The notes beneath the pieces were generated by a model. That model did no database searches. It was not told the origin of the DNA and saw nothing but the letters and a program-made list of their open reading frames with translations. This document shows positions 1-60,936 of a DNA stretch of 64,000 nucleotides, in pieces. A program made the position numbers and the translations under genes. Where the stretch lies: the IMG/VR virus record IMGVR_UViG_3300042363_000209. One strand, 5' to 3'. Numbering within the stretch: the first letter of the stretch is position 1; every line of letters begins with the position of its first letter. The stretch is from a virus. Its lineage: Duplodnaviria; Heunggongvirae; Uroviricota; Caudoviricetes.

Positions 1-3000
1 TCAGGAACTAGTGGGTCTTCAGGCTCATCTGGAACATCAGCAATAGATGGCACATCTGGAACTAGTGGAACTAGTGGAACCAGTGGTGCTGATGGTAGTA
101 ATGGTACATCTGGTTCATCAGGTACTTCTGGAGAAACAGGTGACCAATTTGCAACAACTTCTACTACATCGTTTACATTAGGTAGTAATGGAGCCATTGT
201 TGTAGGAACACAACTTGCATATACAGTAGCTCAATCTATTGTAATAGCTTATGATATAAACAACTTCCAAGAATGTGAAGTGGTATCTTATAACCCAGCT
301 ACTGGTGGATTAATTTTTGGCACTCCAACTAGAACAGTTGGTAGTGGTACATATACAAGCTGGATAGTTAACTTAGACGGTGCTTCTGGAGGAGATGGTT
401 CTTCTGGAACATCTGGCACTACTGGAACTTCAGGATCTTCTGGGACTAGTGGTTCTTCTGGAACTGCTGGAACAACAGGAACCAGTGGTACAAGTGGCAC
501 GACTGGAACAAGTGGTTCTAGTGGTACATCTGCAATTGATGGAACTAGCGGTACAAGTGGCACAACTGGAACTAGTGGAACAGCTGGTACAAGTGGAACA
601 TCAGCTATTGATGGAACATCTGGTACAACTGGAACCTCAGGAACTAGTGGCACAACAGGTACAAGCGGTACATCTGGTTCAAGTGGAACATCTGCTACCA
701 ATGGTACAGGTGGTACTAGTGGATCAAGTGGAACAAGTGGCACATCAGGAATTGATGGTACAAGTGGATCTAGTGGAACTACAGGAACAAGTGGAACCTC
801 AGGTTCTTCTGCAACTAGTGGAACATCTGGTTCAACAGGTACATCTGGAACTAGTGGAACAAGCGGCTCTTCAGGAACTGCTGGTACTACTGGTACCTCA
901 GGAACTTCTGCAATAGATGGAACAAGTGGAACATCTGGTACCACTGGTACGTCAGGTAGTGGTGGTACTTCAGGTACCTCAGGTACAACTGGTATAGATG
1001 GTACTAACGGAACTTCTGGCACAACTGGTACTAGTGGTACTAGTGGGTCAACAGGTACGTCTGGCACAAGTGGAACATCTGGTGTAGACGGAACAAGTGG
1101 TACCTCAGGTACAAGTGGAACTTCTGGTACAAGTGCTATTGATGGCACAAGTGGTACTAGTGGAACAACTGGTACAAGTGGTACTAGTGGAACTAGCGGT
1201 ACTAATGGTACTGGTGGAACTAGTGGAACTAGTGGATCTACAGGTACTTCAGGCTCTAGTGGAACTACTGGTACAAGTGGATCATCTGGTACAAGTGGTA
1301 GTTCTGGATCTAGTGGAACTAATGGAACTGGTGGCACTTCAGGTACAACAGGAACAAGTGGTTCTAGTGGAACTAATGGAACTGGTGGAACTAGTGGTAC
1401 ATCAGGATCTAGCGGTACAACTGGAACTTCAGGAAGCTCAGGTACAAGTGGAACAACTGGTACAAGTGGTTCTACAGGAACTAGTGGTACGTCTGGTACA
1501 ACAGGAACTAGTGGATCTAGCGGAACAAGTGGAACAAGTGGTACTTCAGGTACGGCTGGTACATCAGGTATAAATGGTATATCTGGAGGACTTGTATACT
1601 ATCTAAATCAATCATTAAATACAAATACGGCTTTTGGTACTCCTACTTATAAACAATTTTCATCAACTGCTACAGGTGGTGCAGAACAAACTGTAGTTAC
1701 AAATATAGCGGCAGACACAAGAACATTAATTGCAACTTTTGCAACTGATAGTGGTGTACCAAATATAACAAATATACCTTCAGGTCTTTGGGCTTTCGTA
1801 ACACACCTTTCAATTGATACAAATAGAAATGTTGCAGTAGATGTAGAATTATACAAGTATACAACTGGTGGTGTTTCTACTCTTTTAGGAACTACAAACA
1901 TTGATACAGAATCAATGAGCAATGGTGTTATTAAAGAATTTTTTACAGATTTATTTTTGCCACAAACCACATTAAATGCAACAGATAGACTTTATTGTCA
2001 AATTTATGTTGAATTTACTGGTGGTGGTGCTAATCATAATATAACTTTTTATACAGAGGGTACGAGTAACTACTCATACGCTCAAACAACATTCAATGCT
2101 CCTTCAGGAACATCAGGTACCACTGGAACAAGTGGAACTGATGGATCTTCAGGAACTTCTGGTACATCAGGAACAAGCGGTACCACTGGTACTTCAGGTT
2201 CAACTGGTACAAGTGGAAGCTCTGGTACAACAGGTACATCTGGCTCTTCTGGTACATCTGGTTCATCTGCAACTTCTGGTACCACTGGTACATCAGGAAG
2301 TTCAGGAACTAATGGAACTGGAGGTACCTCTGGTACAAGTGGAACTTCAGGTTCTAGTGGTACTAATGGAACTGGTGGTACAAGTGGAACAAGTGGCACA
2401 ACTGGAACCAGTGGTACAACAGGTACTAGTGGAACTAGTGCAACAAGTGGTACATCAGGTACCACAGGAACATCAGGATCTTCTGGTGTTAGTGGTAGTA
2501 ATGGAACTAGTGGTACGTCAGCAACTTCAGGAACTTCAGCTACTAATGGAACTGGCGGTACTTCAGGTACTACTGGAACATCAGGCTCTTCAGGCTCTTC
2601 AGGTACTAATGGTACAGGTGGTACATCTGGAACTAATGGTACAGGAGGAACTTCTGGAACAACTGGAACCTCAGGCACATCTGGTATAAACGGTACATCT
2701 GGCACAACAGGAACAAGTGGAACTAGTGGAATAAACGGTACATCAGGTACAACTGGTACCTCTGGCACTTCTGGTGTTAATGGATCAAATGGTACTTCTG
2801 GAACTACAGGAACTAGCGGTTCTTCTGGCACTGCTGGTACATCAGGTATTAATGGTACATCAGGTACCACTGGCACAAGCGGTACTACTGGTACCTCTGG
2901 AACAAGTGGATCAAGTGGTATTAATGGTACATCTGGAACTGCTGGTACAACTGGTACTAGTGGTACATCAGGAGCTGCAGGATCTCCAGGAGCTCCTGGA

Positions 3001-6301: not shown

Positions 6302-7123
6302 TTATTTACTATATCTAAATGTGTCATAGAACCATTTGTAATTGGTATAGATCCAATCTGTTACGTCCTTACCTAATAACTCTTTGGCTTTACTTCTTAC
6401 AGGTTCAAGTTTTGTACGAATAACGTGATCACCAAATGCACCGTACACTTCATCATCTTCTTTAGTTACTTGCTCAATGTGATCAAAGTCATGTTGATAA
6501 TATGTTAATCCTAGATATTCATATATCTTAATCATTGTAGTATCTGGATATAAACATAAGTCTTCAAACTTTACAAATAACATTTTGTTATTAATTCCTG
6601 TTCTAAATATCTCACTAAGTCTTTCAAGAGCAAGTCCTACAGGAGGTTGTGATGCCCATATGTCTATACGCTTAGGTACAGTGGTTCCTTGTCCTTTAGC
6701 CCAATCTAAAATATCAGATTGCTTCTCTGGATGTTTTCTAAAGTTACCTTCCATAGATGCAAATACATCACGTAAGTCTCTCACCATACAAATGATTTTT
6801 GGTTCTTCATTGTGTACAAACTGTAAGAAATCATAGTGTATGCCCCAACCTCTGCTTTTATCTATAACATATTTCTTATCTGTAATAGCATTGTAGAAAG
6901 CATCCATACCAGATTTAGCAAATGCTTGCCATCCTTTTTTCATAAGTTCAGCATCTTGAGCTTTAAACTCAGTAGAGTTAGTGTAATTAGCACGTGCTCC
7001 AAATATTAATTCAAGTACACCAGACGTAGGTGTAGCATATATATCAGGGTTCTGTGCAAGAATGTTTTGTAACAATGTAGATCCTGACCTAGGTAAAGAA
7101 CTTTGATAGAATATTTTTTCCAT
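6302..7123 (-). CDS. Sulfotransferase-family protein (PAPS-dependent)
   Basis: N-terminal 5'-PSB-like P-loop (SSLPRSGSTLLQNIL), size 273 aa, and an adjacent APS-kinase-like gene. Confidence 0.6.
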   Translation of the reverse strand: MEKIFYQSSLPRSGSTLLQNILAQNPDIYATPTSGVLELIFGARANYTNSTEFKAQDAELMKKGWQAFAKSGMDAFYNAITDKKYVIDKSRGWGIHYDFLQFVHNEEPKIICMVRDLRDVFASMEGNFRKHPEKQSDILDWAKGQGTTVPKRIDIWASQPPVGLALERLSEIFRTGINNKMLFVKFEDLCLYPDTTMIKIYEYLGLTYYQHDFDHIEQVTKEDDEVYGAFGDHVIRTKLEPVRSKAKELLGKDVTDWIYTNYKWFYDTFRYSK

Positions 7124-7989
7124 TATTTTAAAGATTTAATTACATTGTTTATATTAAACATTTCAGACTCATTATTGTAAGGAAACTCTATAAGCTCACC
7201 TGATATATTATATTTGTTCAAATAAGAGTTTCTTAGTTCAGAGGAACTTGTTTCTGGATTAGCTGTAATGTTTGTATGAATATCATATCCAAATACATTA
7301 GGAACATTTACAACCCATAGTACAGTGGATGGTTTATTCAAAGCAGCTGCAGCATGTTGACCAAAGCTATCCATCATTAATCTTTTATCACTTATACTTA
7401 TAAGTACAAGAAGTGCTCTGAATGTATCAGTTACAGGAAATGTACCTTCATAATTTATTTGATCTTCTCTTCTTATGTGAACAATATTATACTGTTCTTT
7501 AAATTCATGTATAACATTCTCCACCACATAACTAGGAATATCTCTAGCCCATGAGTATTTAACATCAGATTCAGTCCCACCATTTGTTTGTAGTAGCAAA
7601 ATAGGTTTATCAGATATGAACTTCTTACTAAAGAAATCTATTTCTCTTTTTGTAAGAAATAATTCTCCAACAGTTTTAGTTACAGGTAAGTCATATAGCT
7701 TACACCAAGTTTCAATAAGATGTTCTTCTTGTTTGATGTGCTTTGTTTCTAGATAAGGATCATGTGCAAACAATATAATCTCTTGATTCTCAATGTACTC
7801 CTTATAGAAATAAGCTTGTTGACCAAAGCCATAAGCTCTATCCACATTAGGATTACCTAAAAATACATCTGGATAACCAGAGACAACAATCAGTTTACAA
7901 TCAGGGTACTTAGTTTTTATTGAAGCACACACAGCTGTGGAGGCAATCACCTTGCCTATACCACCATTAATTTGAAATATTATATTCAT
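7123..7989 (-). CDS. GT9-like glycosyltransferase (heptosyltransferase family)
   Basis: N-terminus NIIFQINGGIGKVIASTAVCASIKTKYPDCKLIVV resembles the GT9 'ILIIRxxxIGDVIxxTP' signature. The start overlaps the upstream gene (ATGA-type coupling). Confidence 0.5.
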   Translation of the reverse strand: MNIIFQINGGIGKVIASTAVCASIKTKYPDCKLIVVSGYPDVFLGNPNVDRAYGFGQQAYFYKEYIENQEIILFAHDPYLETKHIKQEEHLIETWCKLYDLPVTKTVGELFLTKREIDFFSKKFISDKPILLLQTNGGTESDVKYSWARDIPSYVVENVIHEFKEQYNIVHIRREDQINYEGTFPVTDTFRALLVLISISDKRLMMDSFGQHAAAALNKPSTVLWVVNVPNVFGYDIHTNITANPETSSSELRNSYLNKYNISGELIEFPYNNESEMFNINNVIKSLK

Positions 7990-8372
7990 AGTTTACCTTC
8001 TTTTTTCATTTGTTCTCTAATTTGTGTAGCAGATATATCATGTATCTCTTGTGGTGGTACATGTTCAACGACATCATAACCCACCCCTCTTCCAAAGTTT
8101 ATAGACTCAATATCAGGGATAATTATAAGTCTCACCTTACCTTCTTCAATTAAATCATTTAATGCTTCTGCTAAGTTCATCATGATTTGATACGCAGACC
8201 ATGGATTCTTTTCATCCTCTTTAACATCTCTTACACATAGCAACACCTTCTTTCCCTGGTTCAATTGTTGATCAATTAACCATCTGTGACCAGCGTGCCA
8301 TGGTTGCCATCTTCCTATGAACATTGCATACCCATCCGTCTTACGGTTTCCCTCAGCTAAAATATTCTGCAT
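7986..8372 (-). CDS. Small HxGH nucleotidyltransferase (cytidylyl/adenylyl-transferase-like, TagD/HldE-domain-II class), 128 aa
   Basis: Motif FIGRWQPWHAGH equals the (F/G)xFDxxHxGH signature. The C-terminal ISATQIREQM resembles TagD ISTTKIKEEI. Length equals a minimal CTP_transf_like domain. Confidence 0.6.
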   Translation of the reverse strand: MQNILAEGNRKTDGYAMFIGRWQPWHAGHRWLIDQQLNQGKKVLLCVRDVKEDEKNPWSAYQIMMNLAEALNDLIEEGKVRLIIIPDIESINFGRGVGYDVVEHVPPQEIHDISATQIREQMKKEGKL

Positions 8373-8794
8373 ATACGCTTGATTTTATCTAAACTGTCTT
8401 CAATAGAAGTGTTAGAAGTGTTAATAATTAAATCTACATTATCCATGTGAGGAACTTCAAAGTCTTTCACTTTAAAGTCATCTCTACCTCTATCTTCTTC
8501 ATAGATGAGATATATCCATTTGACATCTCTAGTTAGTTTATTAAGATGTTCTCTAGCTTCTTCATAAGGATACACTAGTGATAACACTATGTTATAGTTT
8601 TTAGCTTTATTTAAATAGTGTGCTATATCACTGGCTCTGTTTAAGTTCTTAATCCTACCTTCTCTACTGTAGTCTTTATTCTTAAACATATCTCTTAATT
8701 CATCACCATCTATGTGATGAAATCCCTCTGCTATAAATTTTTTAGCAAGGGTTGTTTTACCTGATGCAGGTTGACCAAATAATACTATTATCAT
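8357..8794 (-). CDS. Adenylylsulfate (APS) kinase-like P-loop kinase
   Basis: Walker A VLFGQPASGKTTLAKK, followed by IDGDELRDMF...SREGRIKNLNRASDIAHYL. This parallels CysC LDGDNVRHGL...EDRAENIRRVGEVAKLF. Confidence 0.6.
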   Translation of the reverse strand: MIIVLFGQPASGKTTLAKKFIAEGFHHIDGDELRDMFKNKDYSREGRIKNLNRASDIAHYLNKAKNYNIVLSLVYPYEEAREHLNKLTRDVKWIYLIYEEDRGRDDFKVKDFEVPHMDNVDLIINTSNTSIEDSLDKIKRICRIF

Positions 8795-11700
8795 AGTAAG
8801 TGTTTTATTTTATTAATTACTGTTTCTGCAGATATACCTTTATGACATTCAAATTGTCTGTCAGTTCCTTTATGTACAGGACACCAATCCCAATCACCTT
8901 TGTCAAACTTAAAGTTAGGATTGTTCCAACAACCATGACATAAGTTTGTATCTGTAATTCTTAAACAATTAGATTGAAACTCATGATCTGCTTCTGTAAA
9001 GTTACTAATCATTACAGTTTGCTTACCCATCATCCAAGCTAACCAGCTCAGTCCTGAGCTTAATCCTATAAAGAACTTACTATTCCAGATCATATTGATA
9101 GTGTTATCCATAGAAGTATCTTCTATCTGTGTACAGTTATCAAATGGATTTTTTTCTTTAGATACATTGTACACCTTGTATCCATGATCAACTAGATAGT
9201 TAATCAAAGCCTGCCAACCTTGCTTGGTCCAGAACTTACATCCTGATGTACTGTTTGTAGCAATAGTTACAAATGTATCTTTACCACTAAATTTAACTGG
9301 TTCATAAGCAAATCTAGGTCTAATCTCTTTCCATTCTAATCCTAGTATGTTAGTAGCTGCTTTCTGTAAAGGAATAGTGTTACACAACACAGGTTCTTTA
9401 TCTTTACCGTATCTCCAGCCAACAATGTACTGACCATGAATATTACCCACTACACTTCCTGGAGTGATAAACTCAAGCTCTGGATACGCTTTCTCAAACA
9501 AGAAATTCTTATATGTGCTCACTACAACATGACAGTTGTGTTTCTTTCTGAATTCATTGCAATACGGTATCCAGGCAATAGTATCACCTAATGATTGACT
9601 ATCTATACAGATGTATACACGCTTACCTTCATAGTTTAACGTTTCTTCAAAGATGAGTTCTCCATCTTCCCATACCATAGCTGTCCACTTGGTAAACCAT
9701 TGTCTATTTAACTTAACCCAACGGTTGCTAGTAATTGTATTTTCATAATGGCAAACCCCTTTCTCATCAAAGAATTTGATTAAGAAGTTACTATCACTGT
9801 TTCCTGTAATTTCTAAGGTGGGACTCTCTACAAATAACAAAGATATATTCACCTTTGTTTTCTTCTTTTTTCTAGGAACAATGGGTATATCAAGTGTTTT
9901 GTTATACAAGTGTAAATGATTTTGTGCAAATCTGTTATCTGGTATGTCATGAAAAACAACACCAACAGGATATTTTTCATTCACTTCATCTAAATCACTA
10001 TCTATAGGTAGGATGTATCTAGTAAACATATCTTCATACTGAGGAAGATTTCTAGCTACTACAGGAAGTGCATAGCTGATCGCTTCTCTAAGTACAAGAG
10101 GATTACATTCCCATGTGCTGTTAAACATGAATATGTCTGCAGCTTTTAAGAATATATCTACATCATTTCTCTCTCCCCATATCTTTACATTCTTTGGTAA
10201 GTTTTCCATCAACGGTTCCCAGTAGTCTTTAAAGTTGGGGGCTTGATTACCTACAAAATGGAAGTCCATACTAGGATATTTTCTAGCTATCTCTATTCCT
10301 TCTTTCTGATTCTTTCCTGGAGTCCACAGTCCTACGTTTACAACATTAGGTCTGTTCAGATTAAATCCTAACTCATCTTTAGCATCCACTTTATGTACAA
10401 TACTTGGTCTCTTATCTTCTATAGGGAATTCAATTACATCTTTATAAGCCTTCATGTTAGCAAATGTCTTATAATGATATGGTGTACAGAAAGCATAAGC
10501 TTCTGGTTCATACTTCTTAAGTTCGTCAGGATTAAACCAAACGTTATGACATGTCTCAACTATTCTCCAGGTTCTATCAGGAGCATACAATGCATCTAAT
10601 AACTGAGGGCTTATTTGATTAAAACTCTCAAACCCTTCTAACATTTCTTCTACATGTACAACATCAATGCTATTCTTTTTGATGATGTCAATGAGCTCCA
10701 TCTTGTTTTCTCCTAGTGTAAACATCCTGTTTTCAGGCAATAGCTTTTTGATTTCATTCTTCTGTACAACATACACAGGACTGAAGTCAGAGTACTCCAC
10801 TACATAAATTCGTACGAAATGTTGTAGTTCTTGCACTCTTTTTAGGAGGAAACCAGGCATACCACCTGTAGATAAGTGAGGAGCTAAGAACAATACACTT
10901 AGTTGTTTCTCTGCACTCTCTAGAGTTTGTATCATCTTATTCATCACCTTTGGATCTTTCTCTCCATGTAAGAATAATAACTTATGTTTATTATCTGGTA
11001 ATCTTGACCAGCTTCCGTGGTGCTTCCCCCACTCAAGCTTATCGTAGATGTCTTCTATTCTATCTAGGCTAGCATTGGTGTAGATGTAAGGTAGGCCATC
11101 TAACACTCCCCACTTCCACAATAACACGTTAGCTATTGTTTCTTCATGGTATGGAGCATACCACTCATGGTTAGCCATCACTTTAGGATGAGTACACATC
11201 CAGTACCACTCATCTAAGAAATCAAAGCAGTAATGGTTGGCTACAAAATAACCTGTTTGTCTATATCTCTGTCTAACATATTGATTGACACCAAACAATT
11301 CACATGCTGGTGCTTCTAATGTTGTAGACATATCTTCTCTAGTATCAGCCCCACCTCTACCATTGATGTGTAGATAGTCATAAATACCCTCTACAAAATA
11401 GGGATAGTTCATTTTAGGATACATATCAAAGATGCTATCAACATATTCTGTGGCTACACTATCAGAGTCTATATAAGCTACTGTATGAGCACAGTTTAAT
11501 AGAGCATCTTTAACAATCATTGGACGTTCTATCAACAGTCTATAAACATTCTTATCACTTCTATCAATGTATTTGTTGATAGAAAGCTTTGGTAGATTAG
11601 ACTTCCACATAATTGTTGTAGCACCAGGAATATCTGCAATAGTATCTAATAAATATACGTAGATGGGAAGCTCGCTATATCTTCTTATAGAAGCTACACA

Positions 11701-12288
11701 AGCTTTAACGGTAGGAACATAAGATGCATTTGCATATAAAACGTACGCTTTTTCAGCTTTTATATGCTTATTCGTATAATACCCATACAAATGATTACTG
11801 TAAAGTTCAACTAGCTGGGGGTATCTAGTCTTCATTACCCTGTGAGTTAGGTCTTCCTGGAGATGGGTTTCGTATGTATTACCATACTCTTCACCATCTT
11901 GAGCCATCATATATGGTACAGCCACTAAACATTCTTTGCCTGCATCTGTTATATCTGTAATAAGCTTCTGACCTTCTTCAGCTGTAAGATGTTCTAGTAT
12001 ATCTCCTAGGATGATGTAGTCATATTCTGACCAGTCAAACTCACGGATGTCTGCATTGTGTACTGTTCCGTACCAATCTTTCAGTTTGAATTCTTCAATG
12101 TAAGGGGCCCAAGCTTCAACAGCATCTATATCATAACCAATATCTTCTAAAAGCTTAGCATAAGTACCCTGTCCAGGACCAACATCTAATATCTTTTTAT
12201 GTGTAGGAACATGATGTTCAAAGTATTTCTTAATCTCAGGTTTGTAAAAAGTATAACTATTTGGCATAATGCTGGTTATTTTGAACAA
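8791..12288 (-). CDS. Giant multidomain decoration enzyme (1165 aa). N-terminal class-I SAM methyltransferase, followed by GT-A (GT8-like DxD), GT-B (GT4-like) and a C-terminal GT9-like domain.
   Basis: Four domain signatures in order: SAM motif I ILDVGPGQGTYAKLL; a DxD motif, AYIDSDSV; a GT-B region, FMFNSTWECNPLVLREAISYALPVVARN; and a C-terminal CHGCWNNP... segment with GT9-like layout. Confidence 0.55.
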   Translation of the reverse strand: MFKITSIMPNSYTFYKPEIKKYFEHHVPTHKKILDVGPGQGTYAKLLEDIGYDIDAVEAWAPYIEEFKLKDWYGTVHNADIREFDWSEYDYIILGDILEHLTAEEGQKLITDITDAGKECLVAVPYMMAQDGEEYGNTYETHLQEDLTHRVMKTRYPQLVELYSNHLYGYYTNKHIKAEKAYVLYANASYVPTVKACVASIRRYSELPIYVYLLDTIADIPGATTIMWKSNLPKLSINKYIDRSDKNVYRLLIERPMIVKDALLNCAHTVAYIDSDSVATEYVDSIFDMYPKMNYPYFVEGIYDYLHINGRGGADTREDMSTTLEAPACELFGVNQYVRQRYRQTGYFVANHYCFDFLDEWYWMCTHPKVMANHEWYAPYHEETIANVLLWKWGVLDGLPYIYTNASLDRIEDIYDKLEWGKHHGSWSRLPDNKHKLLFLHGEKDPKVMNKMIQTLESAEKQLSVLFLAPHLSTGGMPGFLLKRVQELQHFVRIYVVEYSDFSPVYVVQKNEIKKLLPENRMFTLGENKMELIDIIKKNSIDVVHVEEMLEGFESFNQISPQLLDALYAPDRTWRIVETCHNVWFNPDELKKYEPEAYAFCTPYHYKTFANMKAYKDVIEFPIEDKRPSIVHKVDAKDELGFNLNRPNVVNVGLWTPGKNQKEGIEIARKYPSMDFHFVGNQAPNFKDYWEPLMENLPKNVKIWGERNDVDIFLKAADIFMFNSTWECNPLVLREAISYALPVVARNLPQYEDMFTRYILPIDSDLDEVNEKYPVGVVFHDIPDNRFAQNHLHLYNKTLDIPIVPRKKKKTKVNISLLFVESPTLEITGNSDSNFLIKFFDEKGVCHYENTITSNRWVKLNRQWFTKWTAMVWEDGELIFEETLNYEGKRVYICIDSQSLGDTIAWIPYCNEFRKKHNCHVVVSTYKNFLFEKAYPELEFITPGSVVGNIHGQYIVGWRYGKDKEPVLCNTIPLQKAATNILGLEWKEIRPRFAYEPVKFSGKDTFVTIATNSTSGCKFWTKQGWQALINYLVDHGYKVYNVSKEKNPFDNCTQIEDTSMDNTINMIWNSKFFIGLSSGLSWLAWMMGKQTVMISNFTEADHEFQSNCLRITDTNLCHGCWNNPNFKFDKGDWDWCPVHKGTDRQFECHKGISAETVINKIKHLL

Positions 12289-21412: not shown

Positions 21413-21437
21413 AAAGCCCCTATTTGGGGCTTTTTTC
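21413..21437. terminator. Bidirectional terminator at the convergence of the + block and the long - block
   Basis: AAAAGCCCCTATTTGGGGCTTTTTTC. GC hairpin flanked by A-run and T-run. Confidence 0.7.
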
Positions 21438-22151
21438 ATTTAGAAGAGTATGTAAATATCTCATAAAGCTTTTATGTCTTATATAATGATGTGTTACATG
21501 TTTATGTAAAAATGTAACATCTTCTTCTGTAAGGTCAGCTAGCATCTTAGGTACATAACTATCTCCTTCTTTCCAAAGGTCATTGAAATATCTTTGAAAT
21601 GGAAACCAGCCATTTAGATATAGTCTATGTAAAACATTTGAATCTAAAAACTTATCATAGATTTTTATCTGGTTCTCTTTTAACCATGTGCCTATACAAA
21701 CATCTTCATATCCATAACCTTTTACAGTCATAGGTTGACAATTTTTAATCAGTTGTGGAGATATAAAATAACCACATCCCCCTGATGGATAATCTAGTTC
21801 AGGTTCTTTTGTATAAGACCCTTTCATACTATATCCGTATACAGCAGTTTTACTAAAGAATGTAATCACTTCTTCAAATAAAGGAATGTTAAGTATTGCA
21901 TCATCATCAATGAAGACTAACCAATCATATGCATCAAGTTGGTCAGTAGTCCTAACCAGGTTAATGAAGTTGACTGTCTTCTCTTCATTGCTTTGATAAT
22001 CATCTTTGTCAGAACAAGATATCTCATTAGGTCTCCCTGTAAGTTTATCTGTAAGACATACATAATCAAGAGCAGATAACCACGTTTCAAGGCAGTTATC
22101 TACTCTGTCAGTATGTTTATGACTAGTTTTTAATACAATTTTGTATTTCAT
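21420..22151 (-). CDS. GT31/Fringe-like glycosyltransferase (beta-1,3-glycosyltransferase fold)
   Basis: DWLVFIDDDAIL (DDD motif) and YPSGGCGYFISPQLI (the GT31 'SGGAGYVLS' motif). Confidence 0.5.
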   Translation of the reverse strand: MKYKIVLKTSHKHTDRVDNCLETWLSALDYVCLTDKLTGRPNEISCSDKDDYQSNEEKTVNFINLVRTTDQLDAYDWLVFIDDDAILNIPLFEEVITFFSKTAVYGYSMKGSYTKEPELDYPSGGCGYFISPQLIKNCQPMTVKGYGYEDVCIGTWLKENQIKIYDKFLDSNVLHRLYLNGWFPFQRYFNDLWKEGDSYVPKMLADLTEEDVTFLHKHVTHHYIRHKSFMRYLHTLLNEKSPK

Positions 22152-44628: not shown

Positions 44629-44979
44629 TTATTGTTGTTTAGCTACATCAATAAACCATTTGATAGCTGCAAGTTCTGCTGCTTCATATGAATCATTGTT
44701 TTGTAATAATTGTGTTGTTGGTCCATAGTGTATAACAGCTATATTTGTTTTACCTATAGAATAAGTGAACTCATACTTCTCTCTGAAGAATCTAAATGCT
44801 TGTTGATAAAGTGGTGCTTGTACACAATTATTAATATTAATAGAATCATTTCTATATATGAGCCATTTTAACTCTAAATATTCTTCTCCTTCTCCTAAAT
44901 AATGTGCAGCACACTTCTCATTAAATCCTAGTTCTTTAAGGTCTAATGATTCTTGATATGGTAAAAATTCTTTTTTCAT
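44629..44979 (-). CDS. Hypothetical protein (116 aa)
   Basis: ORF coupled to polB. Confidence 0.4.
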   Translation of the reverse strand: MKKEFLPYQESLDLKELGFNEKCAAHYLGEGEEYLELKWLIYRNDSININNCVQAPLYQQAFRFFREKYEFTYSIGKTNIAVIHYGPTTQLLQNNDSYEAAELAAIKWFIDVAKQQ

Positions 44980-46931
44980 TAGAATAAATTTAATTGATTT
45001 GGATTAACAATAATTTTTCTTTTCTTACCTTCAAGCTGTATCTTATATACAATACGCTCAGCACGCTCTATATAATATGCGTGGTTAATGTTATCTAGAG
45101 AATGGTCTTTGCTTAGTTTATTACAAACTGTCATTAGCCATTCACCTGCTTCCACTTGTGACACATCTGCAGCATTAGTTGTACAATCAGGATTCTTTAT
45201 CTTTAAGAGCTTTTCTCCTGTATTAGATACATAATAACGAATCAACTTATTGTACACTGTTCTTTTAGCACCAGCTACACCTTCATAATGAAAGTCTTTG
45301 CTAGCCTTTTGCCTTAACGCAAAATCATATATATTATTATGATTGGTGATAGTGTCAGCAATAGGTATATTGTGAACAAAATACTGTTCAAGAGCCAAAG
45401 GAATAACACGACCAGACTTATTTTTATGAAGCTCAAAATCTGTGAGGAAATCGCCTTTCTTTTTAATTTCTCCATTTGTTTTAATTGCTAAATAGTCATT
45501 TACTGTTGAGAATATAATCTTAGCATAATCTGTACGCTCTAGTTCATATGTAGTTAGTTCCATCCACCATTTGTTTAACTCATGCATTTTTTGCAATAGT
45601 TCCTTCTTTATCTGAACTGTAACACCATCTGTATTAGCTGATATAACATGTATACCATTTAATTCATAGGCTTCAATTAGCATAAGTAAACTAAGCTCAC
45701 CTGTAATAGTGGTGAACATGGTTAGTTGTCTATCATAGATCCAGTTTTGCATGTCAGAGCTTTTACCATACACAGAGTTAACTGCTAACTTCAACGCTCC
45801 AACAATACCTGCTATCTTCTTATCTTTCTTAGCTAATGGCTTGAGTTCTAGTCTCTTCTCAAACATCTGTTTGTATCCTCTAAGAAACTCTTTACCTAAA
45901 TGCTGTGGATAGCGACCATTGTTAATGATAATAGCTGGATAGTATGAACTAACATCCCAATCAATAATTTCTACATCTTCATCAGCTTCAAATATCTTGG
46001 GCTTGTTCTCTGTATGTAAACCACCCTTAGCAAACGTATATGTATTATCATAGAATACTAATGACTCTTTAAAATCATCAGTGAGCGTAAAGATTTGTTT
46101 CTTTATATGCTTTAAGAATCCTTGTAGTTCTGGTGTCTGGAATGTTACATAATCAGCTATACAGTTTCTAGCTTTAACTTCTTTACGAAAGTATCCTTTC
46201 TTTGGTAGTTCACTATATTGTATACCTTTCTCTTGACAATAATATTTCTTAATCATTTCATCACCTATCTTACTATCTGAATAGTTAAGACATGGTATGT
46301 TAAACTCTTCTTCAATATCTTGTCTGAGCTCTATCTGATTGTTATCCTTATATAATGGATGTTCAGTGACACCTGTTGTTACCAAATAGAATTCATAAGT
46401 GGCATATATATCATTACGACAGTAATCAATAGTTAGTTCTATTTCATCATCTGTCATGTTAGTCTTTGTATGATGAATGGGCATCTCTTCAATGTTCTCT
46501 AGATCCATCTCAAACTCTAATCTTTTCAATGATACACGTCTGTTCTTATTATCATAATGATTCACCCTAAACAAATCAATTTGCTTATTAGCTAGCCATT
46601 CTTCCCTATATTCTGGGAATACATCATAGTTTGCATCATGTATTATATCTGCAGCCTTCTGAGCTATCAATGCACATACATCTAGTGCACCTATTTCATG
46701 CCAGTTCTGATGATTGCGTATGATCCACTCAACCACTTGACTGTCAAAGCGTAGATTGTTATAACCTACCCAATAGAAGTCTTTGTAGTCTTCTGTCATT
46801 CTAACAAAGGCATCAATTTGGTTTGTATTTTTACTCACCTGGAATTCATGCCATTGCTGTGTTTCAGGATTATATATACAAACTAGAAACAGCTCCTGCA
46901 TGGTTTCTATATCATAGATGAGTACGTTCAT
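44979..46931 (-). CDS. Family B DNA polymerase (compact, 650 aa) with 3'-5' exonuclease domain
   Basis: Exo I IYDIET. Motif A DWDVSSYYPAII (DxxSLYPS). Motif B KLAVNSVYGKS (KxxxNSxYG). Motif C ISANTDGV (DTD). Confidence 0.8.
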   Translation of the reverse strand: MNVLIYDIETMQELFLVCIYNPETQQWHEFQVSKNTNQIDAFVRMTEDYKDFYWVGYNNLRFDSQVVEWIIRNHQNWHEIGALDVCALIAQKAADIIHDANYDVFPEYREEWLANKQIDLFRVNHYDNKNRRVSLKRLEFEMDLENIEEMPIHHTKTNMTDDEIELTIDYCRNDIYATYEFYLVTTGVTEHPLYKDNNQIELRQDIEEEFNIPCLNYSDSKIGDEMIKKYYCQEKGIQYSELPKKGYFRKEVKARNCIADYVTFQTPELQGFLKHIKKQIFTLTDDFKESLVFYDNTYTFAKGGLHTENKPKIFEADEDVEIIDWDVSSYYPAIIINNGRYPQHLGKEFLRGYKQMFEKRLELKPLAKKDKKIAGIVGALKLAVNSVYGKSSDMQNWIYDRQLTMFTTITGELSLLMLIEAYELNGIHVISANTDGVTVQIKKELLQKMHELNKWWMELTTYELERTDYAKIIFSTVNDYLAIKTNGEIKKKGDFLTDFELHKNKSGRVIPLALEQYFVHNIPIADTITNHNNIYDFALRQKASKDFHYEGVAGAKRTVYNKLIRYYVSNTGEKLLKIKNPDCTTNAADVSQVEAGEWLMTVCNKLSKDHSLDNINHAYYIERAERIVYKIQLEGKKRKIIVNPNQLNLF

Positions 46932-47312: not shown

Positions 47313-47552
47313 TTATTCTGTTTCGTTAGTATGTATATTCTTAAATTTATCTGCAGCTATACTGTCTTGTTCTTCTAATAGCTCTAATGCTATTTCATAT
47401 CTAGTAAGGTTTACATTACTAATATATAGTTCATCATATATTGAATCTATTCTGTTTTGTAGGAGAGTATTTTCTCTCTTTAAACTTGCTGTTTCATAAC
47501 CAGCTGCAAATAACACAATTGCTGCTATTGCAAATAATATTGCTGTTTTCAT
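47313..47552 (-). CDS. Small secreted/membrane protein (79 aa)
   Basis: N-terminal hydrophobic leader AILFAIAAIVLFAAG. Confidence 0.35.
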   Translation of the reverse strand: MKTAILFAIAAIVLFAAGYETASLKRENTLLQNRIDSIYDELYISNVNLTRYEIALELLEEQDSIAADKFKNIHTNETE

Positions 47553-47706
47553 AGGTTATTTGTATGTTTTAATATATTCTTTAATACACCATTTAATCAT
47601 ATCCCATAGATAATATCTCTGTTTAGACTTGGTTAGTTTGTACAAACCTTCATAATAACTAAAATATTTGTTCATAATGTGTAATTTAATGCACTAAATT
47701 AGAAAT

Positions 47707-47973
47707 TTATTTCTTTTTTGCTGCTTTTGTTGGTGTTTTAGGCAACTTATTGCTCTTTTTAGAACTATATTTCTCTTTTCCTTCAAGAGCTGTTAGTAAT
47801 GCAGCACTGAATATTTTAAGCAATTCTTTATCTTCTTCCATTACGCTAGCTAATCCAGCACCAAGTCCTGCACCATTTGAATCATCATGATATATAATGT
47901 CTACATGATTACCACGTATACTCATAAAGAAATGAGCATTCATGTCTTCTACCTTTAATTTACTTTTTGCCAT
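47707..47973 (-). CDS. Hypothetical protein (88 aa) with Lys-rich tail
   Basis: ORF. Confidence 0.35.
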   Translation of the reverse strand: MAKSKLKVEDMNAHFFMSIRGNHVDIIYHDDSNGAGLGAGLASVMEEDKELLKIFSAALLTALEGKEKYSSKKSNKLPKTPTKAAKKK

Positions 47974-47999
47974 GTTGTGTTTTTTAATTGTTAATGTTG

Positions 48000-48410
48000 T
48001 GGAGGTGAGGGGAGTTGAACCCCTGTCCAGACAAGTGATAATAATACCATTCTTACATGCTTAGATCTGAAGCTGTTCATGTACATTTACTTAGAGCAAT
48101 TACAATGTATTACTACATAGTCCTAAGCACTTCTAATCAGTAGTTGGGATCGCAGGGTTTGCTATCTACCACCACTCTATTTTGACATAATAGAGAAAAC
48201 GCTTGTAACTTTCTGTTTCCAGGTTGTTACCACCCAGTTGACTAAGCAGCTAATGCTAACTCAGAAGCGAAAGCCATAGCAATAATGCTAGCACCTTCTT
48301 CAACACGCTCAGATTGACTCTTTACGGTTATTGTTTAGAACTTGTTTACCTGTTCCAAGGCTTGCATGTGATACTACCAGCCTCATGTCTGTCAAAGCCA
48401 GTACACCCCC
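48000..48410 (-). ncRNA. ssrA: tmRNA (ssrA), phage-encoded, about 410 nt
   Basis: The minus-strand RNA starts GGGGGUGUACUGGCUUUGACAG... (tmRNA 5' acceptor/D-analogue). It contains a tag reading frame ...GCU UUC GCU UCU GAG UUA GCA UUA GCU GCU UAG (…AFASELALAA-stop). It ends ...GGACAGGGGUUCAACUCCCCUCACCUCCA (T-arm plus acceptor 3' strand complementary to the 5' GGGGGUG). Confidence 0.85.
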
Positions 48411-48411
48411 A

Positions 48412-48609
48412 TTATGTATTTCTATCTAAAGATATATTCTTACAGAATCTGATTTCTTTATTACTCAATGTCCATATTTCACCATTATCCATGGCACAAG
48501 TAAATAGAAGATTATGCTCCTGGCTATAATCTATAACCAAGAAAGCATAACCTTCCATTCCATCAGAATATCTCATGATAGGTATCATTGGATTCAGTTG
48601 AAGAATCAT
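48412..48609 (-). CDS. Hypothetical protein (65 aa) abutting the tmRNA 5' end
   Basis: ORF. Confidence 0.3.
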   Translation of the reverse strand: MILQLNPMIPIMRYSDGMEGYAFLVIDYSQEHNLLFTCAMDNGEIWTLSNKEIRFCKNISLDRNT

Positions 48610-55993: not shown

Positions 55994-56312
55994 AAAAACT
56001 ACATATATAAACACAGAGCTTGAATGGGCAGAAGCACAGCTTGTTTCCTGGAAAGCTTATGTAAATGCAAACCCACTACATGAATTGAAAGATAGAATTG
56101 AGTGGAAGCCTACAGCTAAAGGAGGAATGTTACCTATGGTAATAGCTAGTATTGAAGCTCAGGGTAAGTTTGTACAGGAGACAATGAAGAACTACCTTGC
56201 TCTAGTAGAAGTGGTAGATAAGCTAAGAAACATGGAAGAAGCTAAGGTGGAAGTGAGAGGAAAGGGTGAGTTGTCAGGAGCTGCTGCTGAGTTTTTAGCA
56301 AATAGAAAATAA
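55980..56312 (+). CDS. Hypothetical protein; terminase small-subunit candidate by position
   Basis: 110-aa ORF immediately upstream of and coupled to the large terminase. No motif. Confidence 0.3.
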   Translation: MATIKKTTYINTELEWAEAQLVSWKAYVNANPLHELKDRIEWKPTAKGGMLPMVIASIEAQGKFVQETMKNYLALVEVVDKLRNMEEAKVEVRGKGELSGAAAEFLANRK

Positions 56313-58354
56313 TGATTGAACTACAAAACATAGATTACAAAGATTGGTTCATAAATCAGAAACGTATTCCTGATAAGGAATCTGCTGAATGTAAACCGTT
56401 CTTTGATTTCCATAGAGAATTATGTTTAAATGGTGCTATGATGGGGGGTGTGTATATCAACCCCTTTTTATATTGGCACCTAAATATATGGCACACTGAG
56501 GTGGATGTCATAGATGATAGAGGAAGAATTGCACAAAAATATGCTAATCCGTTTTTAAGAGATAATGAGTGGCTGGTAACAAACGAAATTGATAGAGCCC
56601 AACAGGAAAAAAAGGGCTTGGTTATTCTAGGTATTAGACGTTTTGCTAAATCCGTTCTTGAAGCATCCTATATTGCATGGGGTGCAACATTTGATGAGAA
56701 CTCCCAGAATATTATTGCTGGTTTGAATGCACCAGATATAAAACTTATTACGGATAAAATAGATAAAGGATTAAACTTTATCCCTGAGTATTGGAGATGG
56801 CAGAGAATTGAGGATAACTGGAAAAACCAGGTCACATTAGGTATTAAAACCAAATCTGGTGAACGTATCCCATTCTCTTCCATTCTGATACGTAACCTTG
56901 ATGAAGGTAATAATGAAGAAGCAATTGCAGGTACAAAACCACGTAAATTAATTATAGATGAGATTGGTAAAGGAAATTTTCTTAGAGGTTTACAGGCGGC
57001 TATACCAGGTTTCACTACACCCTATGGTTGGGGATGTTCTCCAATTCTCACAGGCACTGGTGGTGATATGAAGAAATTTCAGGATGCAAAATCCCTGATG
57101 TTTGACGTAGACAACTTTAATTTCCTTACATATAATAATGCAAAAGATGATAAGCGTATACATGGCTTATTCATCCCAGCTAAATATAGAATGGAAGCTA
57201 AAGAGAAATCTACATTAGGAGCTTTCTTAAATGAGCCTACTGGATCAGACTTATATAACGTTGAAATGTTAGTGGGTGATGAGGAAAGAGCTAAAGAGAT
57301 TACAGAGAAGAACCTAGAAAGACTTAAAAAGGCTGGAGATAGAATTGCTTATTTGAAGGAGAAGATGTACTACCCAATGGAGGTGGATGATATCTTCTTG
57401 AATGAGGATACAAACATCTTTGATATTGAATCAGCTAAGAGACAGAAAACCAGACTGTTACAACAAGAAAGAACAGGAACTCCTGTTACATTGTTCTCTG
57501 GAGAAAATGGTATTGAGCATGAGTTTACAGACAAGCTTCCTATATCTAACTTTCCATTAAAGAACAGTGATACAAAAGATGCTCCTATAGTTATATATGA
57601 ATTCCCTGTAGAAAACCCTCCTTATGGATTGTATGTAGCAGGAGTTGACCCTTATAGACAAGGTAAGTCTGTGTATTCAAGTTCACTTGGTTCTGTATTC
57701 ATATATAAAAGAATGCATGAAATTAGTGGTGAGAAGTATCAAGATATGTTCGTAGCTTCGTATTGTGCAAGACCTGATAAGAAAGAGATTTGGGAAGAAC
57801 AAGCTAGACTTCTTATTAAGTATTACAATGCAAGAACACTGTGTGAGAATGATGATATATCATTTATAGAATATATGAAGGCCAAAGGGGATGCTCACTA
57901 TTTAGAGAAACAACCTGAATGGCTTAAAGAAATTGTTCCAAACACAACAGTTAAAAGAGATTATGGAATTCATCGTTCAAGTGACAAAATAATTGAGTAT
58001 CTTCACACCTGCTTAAAGAAGTATATGGAGTCTGTGATATTCAAAGAAACAAATGAGGCTGGTGATACTATAAGAGAAGTTCTAGGGGTGAGTAAGATAT
58101 TTGATCCTGTATTGCTTGAAGAGATTATACAATACAATGATTCAGGTAACTTTGATAGAATCATTGCTGCAGAGTTAGCCATTGCACAAGCATTAAAGAT
58201 GGACCCTATTATGGGTAAGATTGGTGGAACATCTGATGATAGAGTGAAGGCAATGTTTAGTAAGAAGAAAGGAAACGTACTGTTTACAGAATCAAGAGGT
58301 GGGATGTTTGGAACCTCTCATAATAAATATAAAAGAAATAAATTGTTTACATAA
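56312..58354 (+). CDS. terL: Terminase large subunit
   Basis: ATPase Walker-A-like LVILGIRRFAKSVLE, Walker B KLIIDEIG, and C-terminal RNaseH-like nuclease segment LYVAGVDPYRQGKS. 680 aa. Followed by the portal gene. Confidence 0.7.
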   Translation: MIELQNIDYKDWFINQKRIPDKESAECKPFFDFHRELCLNGAMMGGVYINPFLYWHLNIWHTEVDVIDDRGRIAQKYANPFLRDNEWLVTNEIDRAQQEKKGLVILGIRRFAKSVLEASYIAWGATFDENSQNIIAGLNAPDIKLITDKIDKGLNFIPEYWRWQRIEDNWKNQVTLGIKTKSGERIPFSSILIRNLDEGNNEEAIAGTKPRKLIIDEIGKGNFLRGLQAAIPGFTTPYGWGCSPILTGTGGDMKKFQDAKSLMFDVDNFNFLTYNNAKDDKRIHGLFIPAKYRMEAKEKSTLGAFLNEPTGSDLYNVEMLVGDEERAKEITEKNLERLKKAGDRIAYLKEKMYYPMEVDDIFLNEDTNIFDIESAKRQKTRLLQQERTGTPVTLFSGENGIEHEFTDKLPISNFPLKNSDTKDAPIVIYEFPVENPPYGLYVAGVDPYRQGKSVYSSSLGSVFIYKRMHEISGEKYQDMFVASYCARPDKKEIWEEQARLLIKYYNARTLCENDDISFIEYMKAKGDAHYLEKQPEWLKEIVPNTTVKRDYGIHRSSDKIIEYLHTCLKKYMESVIFKETNEAGDTIREVLGVSKIFDPVLLEEIIQYNDSGNFDRIIAAELAIAQALKMDPIMGKIGGTSDDRVKAMFSKKKGNVLFTESRGGMFGTSHNKYKRNKLFT

Positions 58355-60936
58355 TGGCAATTATAAGATATACAAAAGACGCAACAATTAGGTATGCCTA
58401 TTTAAACATCTTCCCTGATCAGTTTAAAACTGAGAAGGAAAAGATGGATGAGAGTTGGATAAAGAATACAATGGACTACTTTGCAAACAAAGCTTACGCT
58501 GAGTATGTAAAGAACCGTGATACGTTTGTTAAGAACTACGATCTTGTTAAGGGTATTTTAAGACATGAGGATTTTTACCAAGAACCTGAGGTGAGAAGTT
58601 TTACAGATATGCTAACAGCTGATTTACAGCTTCCTGCATATGTAAAACATTATTCTATAATGACAACACCTATTAATGAATTAGTAGGTGAGATTTCTAA
58701 ACGTCCAGATGCTTTCCGTGTGAAGGCATTTGATGATGATAGTAAGTCTGAAGAGCTTGAATTTAAAACAAGTATATTACAAGATTATGTAATTAATCAA
58801 GCTCAGTCTAAAATACAAGAACAAGCTGATTTAAAAGGAGAAGAAATCTCTGACGAAGACTTGCAAAAAATGACAATGGAGGATGTAAAAGATCAACTTG
58901 ATTCTTATACATCTGTTGCAGAGAAGTGGGCTAATCATGTATTAACAGCTCAGAAAGCTGAGTTTATTTTAAAAGAAAAAAGTGAAGATGCGTTTAGAGA
59001 TTTATTAATTTCTTCTAGAGAGTTCTATCATGTATATGAAGATAACTCAAAAGTTGGATTTAATATTGAGGTGGCTAACCCTAAGAATACATTCTTCTTA
59101 ACTACACCAGATAGAAAATATATTTCAGATCCTTCAGGACGTGCACAAGGAGCATATGCTGCTGGTACAGTTATGGTGATGGAACTATCTGAGATTATTG
59201 AAACGTTCCCTGATATCACTAAAGAAGAGATTGATCACTTACGTAGTTCATTACAAGACTATGGTTTGATTAACGTACGTGAATCTAATCTAGGTAATCC
59301 TAATGCTATTCCAGGTATTGATTCAGTACAATATGATACATATGATCCATTAGTGTTACAAACAAGAATGGTAATTGAGTCTGAAATGAAAGAGAACAAT
59401 GATGGCTTACAAGACTTCTTAGGTCTTACATCTAATGTTAGTTCATTTGGTTACAAGTATGTTGTTGTACGTACATATTGGATTTCTAAAAAGAAGATTG
59501 GTAAATTAATTTACTTAGATGAGTTAGGTAATGAGCAATCTTTACTAGTAGATGAAAACTACAAATCTGGAACTATTCCTACACAACAATCGTTAGAGTG
59601 GGGATGGATTAATGAATGGTACCAAGGAGTTAAGATTGGTCCAGACATCTATCATATTAAACCATATAAATTACTTCCTTATTGTCCTATCATTGGATTA
59701 GTACATGAAGTTAAGAATACAGAAGCTAGAAGCTTGGTAGATATGATGAAACCTTTTCAGGTTCTTTATAACGTTTGTATGAATCAATTATACAAGCTGT
59801 TAGAAAAAGAAGTTGGTAAGGTGTATTTAACATCTATTAGACATATTCCTATTCCTAAAGATGGAGATGCTCAAGATGCTCTTGATGTATGGGAAATGGA
59901 AGCACGTAACCGTGGTGTAATGTTTATTGATGACTCTCCAGAAAATTTGAAGAGCCCATCATCATTTAACCAGTTCCGTGATATTGATCTTACACGTACG
60001 CAAGAGATCCAATCTAGATATACACTAGCTCAACAATTAAAGAATGAGTGTTGGGAATTGATAGGTATGTCTAGACAACGTATGGGATCTATTTCAGCTA
60101 GTGAATCAGCTACAGGTACTAACACTGCTATTACACAATCATATTCTCAAACTGAGCCTATATTTGTTGCACATGAATACGTATTAGGTCAGCTTTATCA
60201 AGCTATAATTGATGCATCACTATATGTAGAAGCTAAAAAACCTGAGTCAACTATTTCATATATTACTAACGAAGGAGAATCTGCATTTGTACAAGTGAAT
60301 GGTACAGATCTTAAGTTCCGTGATCTTAAAGTGTATTTAACTAATAGACCAGAAGATCAGAAAATGTTTAATGAAATTAGAGGCTTATCTCAAGCTGTTT
60401 TACAAAACGGTGGTTCATTACATGATATCATTGAGCTTTACAGCACTAACTCTGTACGTCAGATGAAGAAGGTGTTTAAGACACTTAAAGATCGTCAAGA
60501 TCAAATGCAAGATCAACAAATGCAACAAAAGCAACAAGAACTTGAGCAACAGCAACAGCAATCTATGGCAGCTATTGAAAGTGCTAAACAAATGCAAGCT
60601 GAAAAAATAGCTCATGATGATTATCAAAATGCATTAGACAGAATTAATAAGAAAGAAATTGCTATTATTTCTGCTGAATCTAAAGGGGGATTACCAGATA
60701 CAGACATAAATGGAGTTCCTGATGCTTTAGAAGTTGATAAATTAATGCGTGAACAAACAAAAGCTGCTAATGATTATCAATTAAAAATGAACGATATTCA
60801 ATCTAAAAATACATTAGCTTTACAAAAACTTGAAGTAGAAAAAGAAAAGTTAAAAGTATCTAGAGAGAATCAAGCAAATGATTTAGCTATTGCTAAAGAG
60901 AATGCTAAAGGTAGGGCGAACAAGAAAACTAAATAG
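58354..60936 (+). CDS. Putative portal protein (860 aa) with Gln-rich coiled-coil C-terminus
   Basis: Position immediately after terL with a TAATG overlap. Size. No diagnostic motif visible by eye. Confidence 0.45.
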   Translation: MAIIRYTKDATIRYAYLNIFPDQFKTEKEKMDESWIKNTMDYFANKAYAEYVKNRDTFVKNYDLVKGILRHEDFYQEPEVRSFTDMLTADLQLPAYVKHYSIMTTPINELVGEISKRPDAFRVKAFDDDSKSEELEFKTSILQDYVINQAQSKIQEQADLKGEEISDEDLQKMTMEDVKDQLDSYTSVAEKWANHVLTAQKAEFILKEKSEDAFRDLLISSREFYHVYEDNSKVGFNIEVANPKNTFFLTTPDRKYISDPSGRAQGAYAAGTVMVMELSEIIETFPDITKEEIDHLRSSLQDYGLINVRESNLGNPNAIPGIDSVQYDTYDPLVLQTRMVIESEMKENNDGLQDFLGLTSNVSSFGYKYVVVRTYWISKKKIGKLIYLDELGNEQSLLVDENYKSGTIPTQQSLEWGWINEWYQGVKIGPDIYHIKPYKLLPYCPIIGLVHEVKNTEARSLVDMMKPFQVLYNVCMNQLYKLLEKEVGKVYLTSIRHIPIPKDGDAQDALDVWEMEARNRGVMFIDDSPENLKSPSSFNQFRDIDLTRTQEIQSRYTLAQQLKNECWELIGMSRQRMGSISASESATGTNTAITQSYSQTEPIFVAHEYVLGQLYQAIIDASLYVEAKKPESTISYITNEGESAFVQVNGTDLKFRDLKVYLTNRPEDQKMFNEIRGLSQAVLQNGGSLHDIIELYSTNSVRQMKKVFKTLKDRQDQMQDQQMQQKQQELEQQQQQSMAAIESAKQMQAEKIAHDDYQNALDRINKKEIAIISAESKGGLPDTDINGVPDALEVDKLMREQTKAANDYQLKMNDIQSKNTLALQKLEVEKEKLKVSRENQANDLAIAKENAKGRANKKTK

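Follow-up and report, generated by a model that had tools for sequence, protein, structure and literature searches.

A phage-encoded one-piece tmRNA with a long hydrophobic-core tag in a crAss-related genome

The window, by which we mean the whole 64-kb stretch of viral DNA analysed here, carries on its minus strand a complete, standard one-piece tmRNA (ssrA) gene at 48000..48410, with G1 of the RNA at 48410 and the discriminator A411 at 48000 (RNA position = 48411 − window coordinate). A tmRNA at 47999..48410(−) is the sole gene that ARAGORN reports for the 64-kb window, and the Rfam model RF00023 matches 47997..48410(−) over model positions 1–374 of 374, with 88 bits for a gathering score of 47 (E = 8e-33), which is far beyond chance; covariation in 20 homologues (see below) supports the same assignment. 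A preliminary description had proposed a tmRNA on this strand and had named a search with RF00023 as the check, and the ARAGORN call together with the strong, full-length model match bears it out. The three sequence elements that it quoted are all present on the minus strand and in the places it gave: the 5′ end GGGGGUGUACUGGCUUUGACAG begins at 48410, the frame ...GCUAUGGCUUUCGCUUCUGAGUUAGCAUUAGCUGCU-UAG, whose end also reads ...GCUUCUGAGUUAGCAUUAGCUGCU-UAG, stops at 48242, and the 3′ end GGACAGGGGUUCAACUCCCCUCACCUCCA finishes at 48000. The 5′ and 3′ ends do pair into a tRNA-like domain, the G3·U pair included. A permissive Rfam scan of the 2.8 kb around the tmRNA returned nothing besides RF00023.

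The two flanking genes lie on the same strand, and neither has an assigned function. The stop codon of the upstream neighbour (48412..48609, minus strand, 65 aa) ends 1 nt before G1, and the ATG of the conserved downstream neighbour (47707..47973, minus strand, 88 aa) follows A411 by 26 nt. Two open reading frames had previously been dismissed as spurious and lying wholly or partly over the tmRNA. This is correct for 48314..48529(+), which is antisense and starts with TTG, and mistaken for 48412..48609, which has no overlap with the tmRNA and is conserved at 65–96% identity in relatives with and without a tmRNA. In more than 10 relatives that lack the tmRNA, the two flanking genes are adjacent, 17–106 nt apart. 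It follows that the tmRNA is an insertion/deletion cassette with exact borders and that 48412..48609 is a genuine gene beside it. Among the informative relatives, defined as loci whose sequence upstream of the polymerase extends for 3.5 kb or more, the tmRNA is present in just 9 of 52, and the gene is therefore dispensable. Carriage varies with polymerase identity to the window, from 5/5 at ≥85% to 0/15 at 80–85% and 4/28 below 80%. The tmRNA is shown to be a cassette of accessory character, placed within the block of replication/early genes.

A search for a promoter of the tmRNA's own gave 39 sigma-70-like sites for 48 expected, using a tool that lacks Bacteroidota-type promoters, and the gene is flanked neither by a sigma-70-type promoter nor by a terminator. 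There is no room for either element, and the tmRNA would be part of a long minus-strand operon transcript. A U immediately precedes G1 in 8/8 homologues examined, and in other carriers the tmRNA lies 1–5 nt from tRNA genes, an arrangement that fits maturation by the tRNA pathway. The lack of a promoter and terminator, the U before G1 and the abutting tRNAs together point to co-transcription with the neighbours followed by such maturation. Examples of the tight packing are a tRNA-Thr 5 nt downstream of the tmRNA in L243/L251 and a tRNA-Phe 2 nt downstream in L246/L253, and L239:367-870 is similarly packed; the tmRNA of the window is packed against protein genes, and there are 0 tRNA genes in the 64 kb. 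Other homologues have local hairpins. In L063 (6670–7230), two similar terminator-like hairpins with U-runs, gccctagtgtttccacatttggggcttttt and ccccccgatgtttctacattggggtcttttttt, stand directly before and ~40 nt after the tmRNA, and in L042 and L013 a hairpin ends 5–7 nt before G1; such hairpins may act in termination or processing or may mark the border of the cassette. Farther along in the window, a 154-nt gap without ORFs (47553–47706, between 47313..47552 and 47707..47973) is unusually long for a packed operon; it has no Rfam match at E ≤ 1.

By its sequence, the window belongs to the genome of an uncultured, probably lytic phage with relatedness to the crAss-like phages. It encodes a large terminase (56312–58354), a portal protein (58354–60936) and a family B DNA polymerase (PolB; 44979–46931), together with ribonucleotide reductase, rIIA, rIIB, RecA/UvsX, a DnaB-like helicase, a primase, a dUTPase, endolysins, a crAss001_48-like protein and a collagen-repeat tail fibre. 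The tmRNA is virus-borne, as the preliminary description had it, lying inside a phage genome and not being a bacterial ssrA beside a prophage. The 89 window ORFs scanned lack domains of an integrase, SmpB, a CCA-adding enzyme, a release factor, a peptidyl-tRNA hydrolase or any other rescue factor; about 50 kb of the genome lie beyond the window. The terminase is closest to that of Leptolyngbya phage Lbo-JY46 (40%), followed by Cellulophaga phages phi17:2 and phi4:1 (33%) and crAss-like phages (25–29%). Lbo-JY46, the closest cultured relative by terminase, has about 20 tRNAs and no tmRNA. The polymerase has 435 relatives in IMG/VR, on contigs of up to about 117 kb. The 2.5-kb tmRNA region has no nucleotide match among GenBank phages, and the tmRNA alone matches just the universal 31–35 nt of the 3′ tRNA-like end there.

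Homologues were first collected upstream of the polymerase with ARAGORN, nhmmer and Rfam, which gave a tmRNA in 9 of 80 fetched relatives, and a family-specific helix-2 seed extended the set to 28 viral and 29 metagenome contigs, all together 22 distinct sequences. nhmmer and Rfam were needed because ARAGORN alone misses the divergent members L013, L063, L044 and L045, and the frame that it chooses in L224 is doubtful. Covariation was computed on 20 of the 22 distinct sequences. With the named structure, 94.8% of cells are paired, compared with 38–49% when partners are slid by 1–3 columns, and double (compensatory) changes occur at 28 of the 41 pairs. The covariation score of 0.427 compares with 0.06–0.09 for the slid versions and was reached by none of 500 shuffles. 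As judged from these alignments, the features of a tmRNA structure are shown to have been kept by compensatory evolution across divergent phage copies. The fold energy of the single sequence is not exceptional (z = −1.4), which is expected because the RNA is pseudoknotted; thermodynamic support was dropped as a criterion, since pseudoknots are outside the energy model, and the structural case therefore rests on covariation.

In the tRNA-like domain, the acceptor stem is formed by the 5′ strand GGGGGUG (48404..48410, minus strand; RNA 1–7, including G3 of the G3·U pair) and the 3′ strand CACCUCC (48001..48007, minus strand; RNA 404–410), with G3 pairing to U408. All seven pairs form in 20/20 homologues, in seven sequence versions; the G3·U pair is likewise kept in 20/20, and the discriminator is A in 19/20, the window among them. 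The T-arm AGGGG-UUCAACU-CCCCU (48008..48024, minus strand; RNA 387–403) has 5/5 stem pairs in all homologues and occurs in nine versions, with compensatory changes at four of the five pairs. Helix 2 (P2), delimited with RNAalifold and pair counts, joins a 5′ strand at 48364..48391 (minus strand; RNA 20–47) to a 3′ strand at 48028..48060 (minus strand; RNA 351–383) that holds the conserved CUAAGCAUGUAAGA segment. Helices 2 and 3 comprise 24 pairs, with double changes at 17 of them and 93–100% of cells paired. The gene ends in ...CACCUCC-A followed by CAA, so that CCA is not encoded in the window and must be added post-transcriptionally; only 8 of 21 homologues encode it. Many bacterial tRNA and tmRNA genes lack an encoded CCA, which is not needed for membership among the tmRNAs.

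Between helix 2 and the tag lies the H-type pseudoknot PK1 (48336..48361, minus strand; RNA 50–75), with the stems GCCU/AGGU and UGGAAC/GUUCUA and a loop 3 of AAACAA. A pseudoknot of this type occurs at the same place in 21/21 homologues tested, in more than 12 stem versions, and ends 8–12 nt upstream of the resume codon in these 21; its stem 1 (helix 4) covaries, and its score was reached by 0/100 shuffles for most homologues. The 10-nt leader AACAAUAACC (RNA 76–85) contains the frame-setting U81-A82 (48329..48330, minus strand) at positions −5/−4 from the resume codon, the junction in the window reading AAUAACC|GUA. The UAAnn|G spacing recurs in 20 of 21 homologues, and L211 has UAGac|G. In E. 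coli, U85/A86 at positions −5/−4 have been shown to set the tag frame (PMC2481249). Beyond the tag, the variable 3′ body (48066..48241, minus strand; RNA 170–345) is the expected place of PK2–PK4. It has many indels and aligns poorly, and folding predicts the stems CUGGGU/ACCUGG with GUAAC/GUUAC, plus CUCUAUU/AAUAGAG, which are plausibly compatible with further pseudoknots. PK2–PK4 are replaceable in E. coli tmRNA (PMC2481249).

The tag frame (48242..48325, minus strand; RNA 86–169) runs from the resume codon GUA (48325..48323) to the stop codon UAG (48244..48242; RNA 167–169). ARAGORN reads the tag as VKSQSERVEEGASIIAMAFASELALAA, 27 sense codons from GUA at RNA 86, and the consensus resume G falls on G86 in the Rfam alignment. 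Of the tag proposed earlier, AFASELALAA, the ALAA end holds and the extent does not, as these are the last ten codons only of a 27-codon frame that starts 17 codons earlier; the accompanying remark that the tag is unlike canonical ones was right and, at this length, even understated. In the homologues, the resume codon column reads GUA, GCA, GCU or GAC. The tag frame is open in all 21 homologues with a readable frame, and there are stops in the other two frames. Pooled pN/pS is 0.43–0.68, and third codon positions vary most in 4/4 alignable tag groups. On this evidence the tag frame behaves like translated sequence; the peptide itself is under no more than moderate selection, from which constraints on the RNA structure are hard to separate. 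Tags of the family are 22–27 codons long and consist of an N-terminal part that is polar, a core that is hydrophobic (IIAMAFA, ILASIFA, IIASLFA, IINMAFA, LMAFVG or SLFAEL) and an Ala-rich end, which is nearly always A(L/V)AA or xxAA and in the window is ...SELALAA-UAG.

Compared with bacterial tmRNA (RF00023, E. coli), the window RNA shares the tRNA-like domain with its G3·U pair, T-arm and discriminator A, a long helix 2 in place of an anticodon arm, PK1 some 10 nt upstream of the resume codon, the U-A at −5/−4, a resume codon starting with G, the ALAA tag end and a variable 3′ body. It differs in its tag, which has 27 codons compared with 10 in E. coli and 9 in Bacteroides, and in its resume codon, which is GUA (Val) and not GCA. 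Unlike its bacterial counterparts, the gene is viral, does not encode CCA, has no promoter or terminator of its own, lies between protein genes and has no smpB within the 64 kb of the window.

From these sequence features, we consider it likely that the gene specifies a functional phage-encoded standard one-piece tmRNA. The precursor would be cut at its 5′ end by RNase P, the U at −1 being invariant, and its 3′ end would be trimmed and then completed by the CCA-adding enzyme of the host. Host AlaRS would charge the RNA with alanine via the G3·U pair, and host SmpB and EF-Tu would deliver it to stalled ribosomes, compatibility being assumed both for AlaRS and for SmpB. Its targets would be broken or non-stop mRNAs, which are expected to be abundant once infection degrades host mRNA. 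Translation would resume at GUA and add Ala plus 27 residues ending in ALAA, after which the ribosome would be freed and the truncated protein marked for ClpXP-type, possibly also Lon-type, proteolysis. The likely gain is that ribosomes and amino acids are kept available for phage protein synthesis. The phage may, as the preliminary description suggested, manipulate ribosome rescue or tagging.

The unusual tag raises the question of which property is under selection. The selected trait could be the distinct long tag itself, giving tagged proteins a different fate, with extra rescue secondary; the tag might address a Lon-type protease or a protease or adaptor of the phage's choosing, or it might make turnover faster or slower than the host tag does. 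Every family member has a tag of 22–27 codons with the conserved hydrophobic core, on unrelated phage backbones, and the native Bacteroides tag is just nine residues long (GETNYALAA). There is also a precedent in the mollicutes, whose long tags switched recognition to Lon (PMC9382460). The tag of Mesoplasma florum (mf-SsrA) is, like the phage tag, long and equipped with a hydrophobic/aromatic element beyond the C-terminal residues; mollicute tags end in YAFA and the phage tag in ALAA, and the likeness is one without demonstrated sequence relationship. A swapped central tag segment in a close relative, in an RNA otherwise nearly identical to that of the window, points the same way. Yet the long tag could have been inherited from an unsampled host lineage, most members keep the C-terminal A(L/V)AA, a classic ClpX-type end, pN/pS is only moderately below 1, and no phage protease or adaptor was found in the 64-kb window. 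Selection for a different protein fate is accordingly held to be an unlikely, if tenable, explanation of the gene.

The swap was observed in L001 (8388–8799), whose polymerase is 96% identical to that of the window. Its tmRNA body is nearly identical too, and the central tag segment is different, reading GEAILASIFAT where the window has GASIIAMAFAS. The L001 segment resembles GEAILASLFS of the distant homologue L063 (6708–7154), suggesting that the tag alone underwent recombination or an exchange of alleles.

An RNA of this kind might also act without productive rescue, as a decoy or inhibitor that titrates host SmpB or competes with the host tmRNA. A molecule with the tRNA-like domain only inhibits tmRNA, perhaps via SmpB titration, and a gene of this sort is present in mycobacteriophage DS6A (PMC4131195); one relative, L045, lacks the mRNA-like domain and keeps the tRNA-like domain and helix 2. 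The window RNA, for its part, still has PK1 and the frame-setting U-A, a resume codon with an initial G, a coding-type open frame and a degron-like end. Because a pure decoy needs neither PK1 nor the U-A nor a tag frame, these features speak against such a role, which we regard as improbable for the window RNA; it would suit the deletion variant L045 and has DS6A as a precedent. The L045 gene (1645–1863) is the same tmRNA with one internal deletion, as seen by comparison with L044 7897–8254. The deletion takes out the 3′ strand of PK1, the resume codon, the entire tag frame and PK2, and the 219 nt that remain, made up of tRNA-like domain plus helix 2, are still matched by RF00023 at 60 bits. 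The shortened form resembles the ‘TLD only’ gene of DS6A, for which inhibition of trans-translation through SmpB titration has been proposed; it may also be an assembly artefact. Assignment of the window gene itself to the DS6A type was rejected on its complete mRNA-like domain, whereas L045 does fit that type.

The family extends beyond the relatives of the window genome. Around the tmRNA, many carriers encode no protein that is detectably shared with the window. The carriers include an 83-kb contig that encodes GroEL and a different polymerase, as well as the 274,208-bp metagenome contig TBL_comb47_HYPODRAFT_10000003, jumbo-phage sized and with a 10-tRNA array, on which there are a tmRNA with the tag ANKTANFDFANNVINMAFANAPVALAA (L258:3838-4336, minus strand) and a partial second copy comprising the 5′ half only (L259:74-283, minus strand). 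The tmRNA family is thus also present in unrelated freshwater phages. No bacterial carrier was found among the 28 viral and 29 metagenome contigs, the metagenome ones being short or phage-like, and the long-tag family appears so far to be phage-only. A donor/host scan of 596 Gb of genome contigs, made with the 14-mer TAGTATCACATGCA, gave 120 chance matches, with 0 inside a tmRNA, a seed of this length being too short for such a volume.

These distributions bear on whether the gene is a mere passenger, that is, a host ssrA captured recently, for example by imprecise excision of a prophage from an ssrA attachment site, and carried along as an attP remnant or with no function under selection. Prophages commonly integrate at ssrA and ssrA fragments occur in phages (PMC9004378), the tmRNA is absent from most relatives of the window, and one carrier (L225) has a tyrosine integrase 2 kb downstream of its tmRNA. 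Against this, the window gene is complete and not a 3′ fragment, and an integrase is absent from the window; among phages the family has become highly divergent with its pairings kept by compensatory changes and its tag frame open, and the 28 viral and 29 metagenome carriers examined all look phage-like, none of them bacterial. Recent capture is thus very improbable, and a functional phage tmRNA remains the preferred reading. In line with this, an attP/attL fragment of ssrA was rejected as an identity for the window gene, which is full length, no Phage_integrase domain being present in the 89 ORFs scanned.

The L225 integrase (6955–8067) combines Arm-DNA-bind_5 and Phage_int_SAM_5, an architecture that we take to be typical of Bacteroidota elements; its presence is a hint both of a temperate relative and of the phylum to which the host belongs. 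That L225 might be a prophage beside a bacterial ssrA was ruled out by phage-like ORFs on both sides of its tmRNA. Together with the terminase affinities, the type of this integrase leads us to suspect Bacteroidota as the host phylum.

A tmRNA in a phage is already known in itself. tmRNAs have been described in eight cluster C mycobacteriophages (Bxz1 and others) and Bacillus phage G (PMC4131195) and in huge phages (PMC7162821), and a survey found one in 402 of 18,146 phage genomes, or 2.3% (PMC9004378). Like the known phage one-piece tmRNAs, the window gene is a complete ssrA in a large-genome phage, here a probably lytic one, and is presumed to sustain translation in infection. These tmRNAs are often accompanied by tRNA genes, of which the window has none, and the present lineage is set apart by being crAss-related, of about 115 kb and probably freshwater, with a hydrophobic-core tag family of its own. 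The long, conserved hydrophobic-core tag is its distinctive trait. Permuted tmRNAs, found in the RefSeq crAss-like Burzaovirus phages cr7_1 and cr124_1 (RF04321), in pelagiphages and in phage Melnitz, are also phage-borne and belong to the wider crAss-related assemblage, and their 3′ tRNA-like half is 94% identical to that of the window over 35 nt. However, those of cr7_1 and cr124_1 are two-piece molecules with short tags such as DNVNNIVDYTNVA, whereas the window RNA is in standard order. A permuted two-piece identity for the window gene was rejected on this order and on its matching RF00023 only, cr7_1 matching RF04321. The Melnitz tmRNA has a riboswitch attached; no riboswitch like it was found near the window tmRNA at E ≤ 1.

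A wider reading would be that one tmRNA lineage has been kept and exchanged among freshwater phages and that its tag is a viral innovation which, unlike the host tag, steers rescued proteins to another proteolytic route or adaptor, and so reprograms trans-translation beyond simply strengthening it; we put this forward only tentatively. Just as tentative is the scope of such an exchange, which would span crAss-related phages of ~115 kb, an 83-kb GroEL-encoding phage and a 274-kb jumbo phage and involve no recent copy of a host gene. Annotation pipelines routinely record phage tmRNAs, and we know of no case in which their function has been directly tested. The locus offers a clean natural presence/absence polymorphism of tmRNA between phages that are syntenic in other respects, a comparative set of 22 or more distinct family sequences, and a tag about three times the typical bacterial length with a conserved hydrophobic core. 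It is a tractable system for asking what phage tmRNAs do, and its existence will not surprise a specialist. If the long tag is phage-specific, viruses would be adjusting not only how fast ribosomes are rescued but also what becomes of the rescued proteins, and the tags could be candidates for orthogonal degradation tags in synthetic biology. If the tag mirrors that of the host, the gene would count as an ordinary auxiliary gene for translation, useful as a marker when hosts are predicted.

Two other regions of the window are of interest in their own right. An apparent sulfation/glycosylation gene cassette occupies 6302–12288 on the minus strand and comprises a sulfotransferase (6302–7123), a cytidylyltransferase-like protein (7986–8372), an APS kinase (8357–8794) and a methyltransferase/group-1 glycosyltransferase fusion of 1165 aa (8791–12288), all on that strand; a Fringe-like glycosyltransferase is encoded at 21420–22151. 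The tail fibre ORF (280–5868, plus strand) encodes 1862 aa from a GTG, or 1317 aa from an ATG at 1915, and is rich in collagen triple-helix repeats, with an S74 intramolecular chaperone domain at its C terminus; local GC over this ORF is 0.42, compared with about 0.33 elsewhere in the window.
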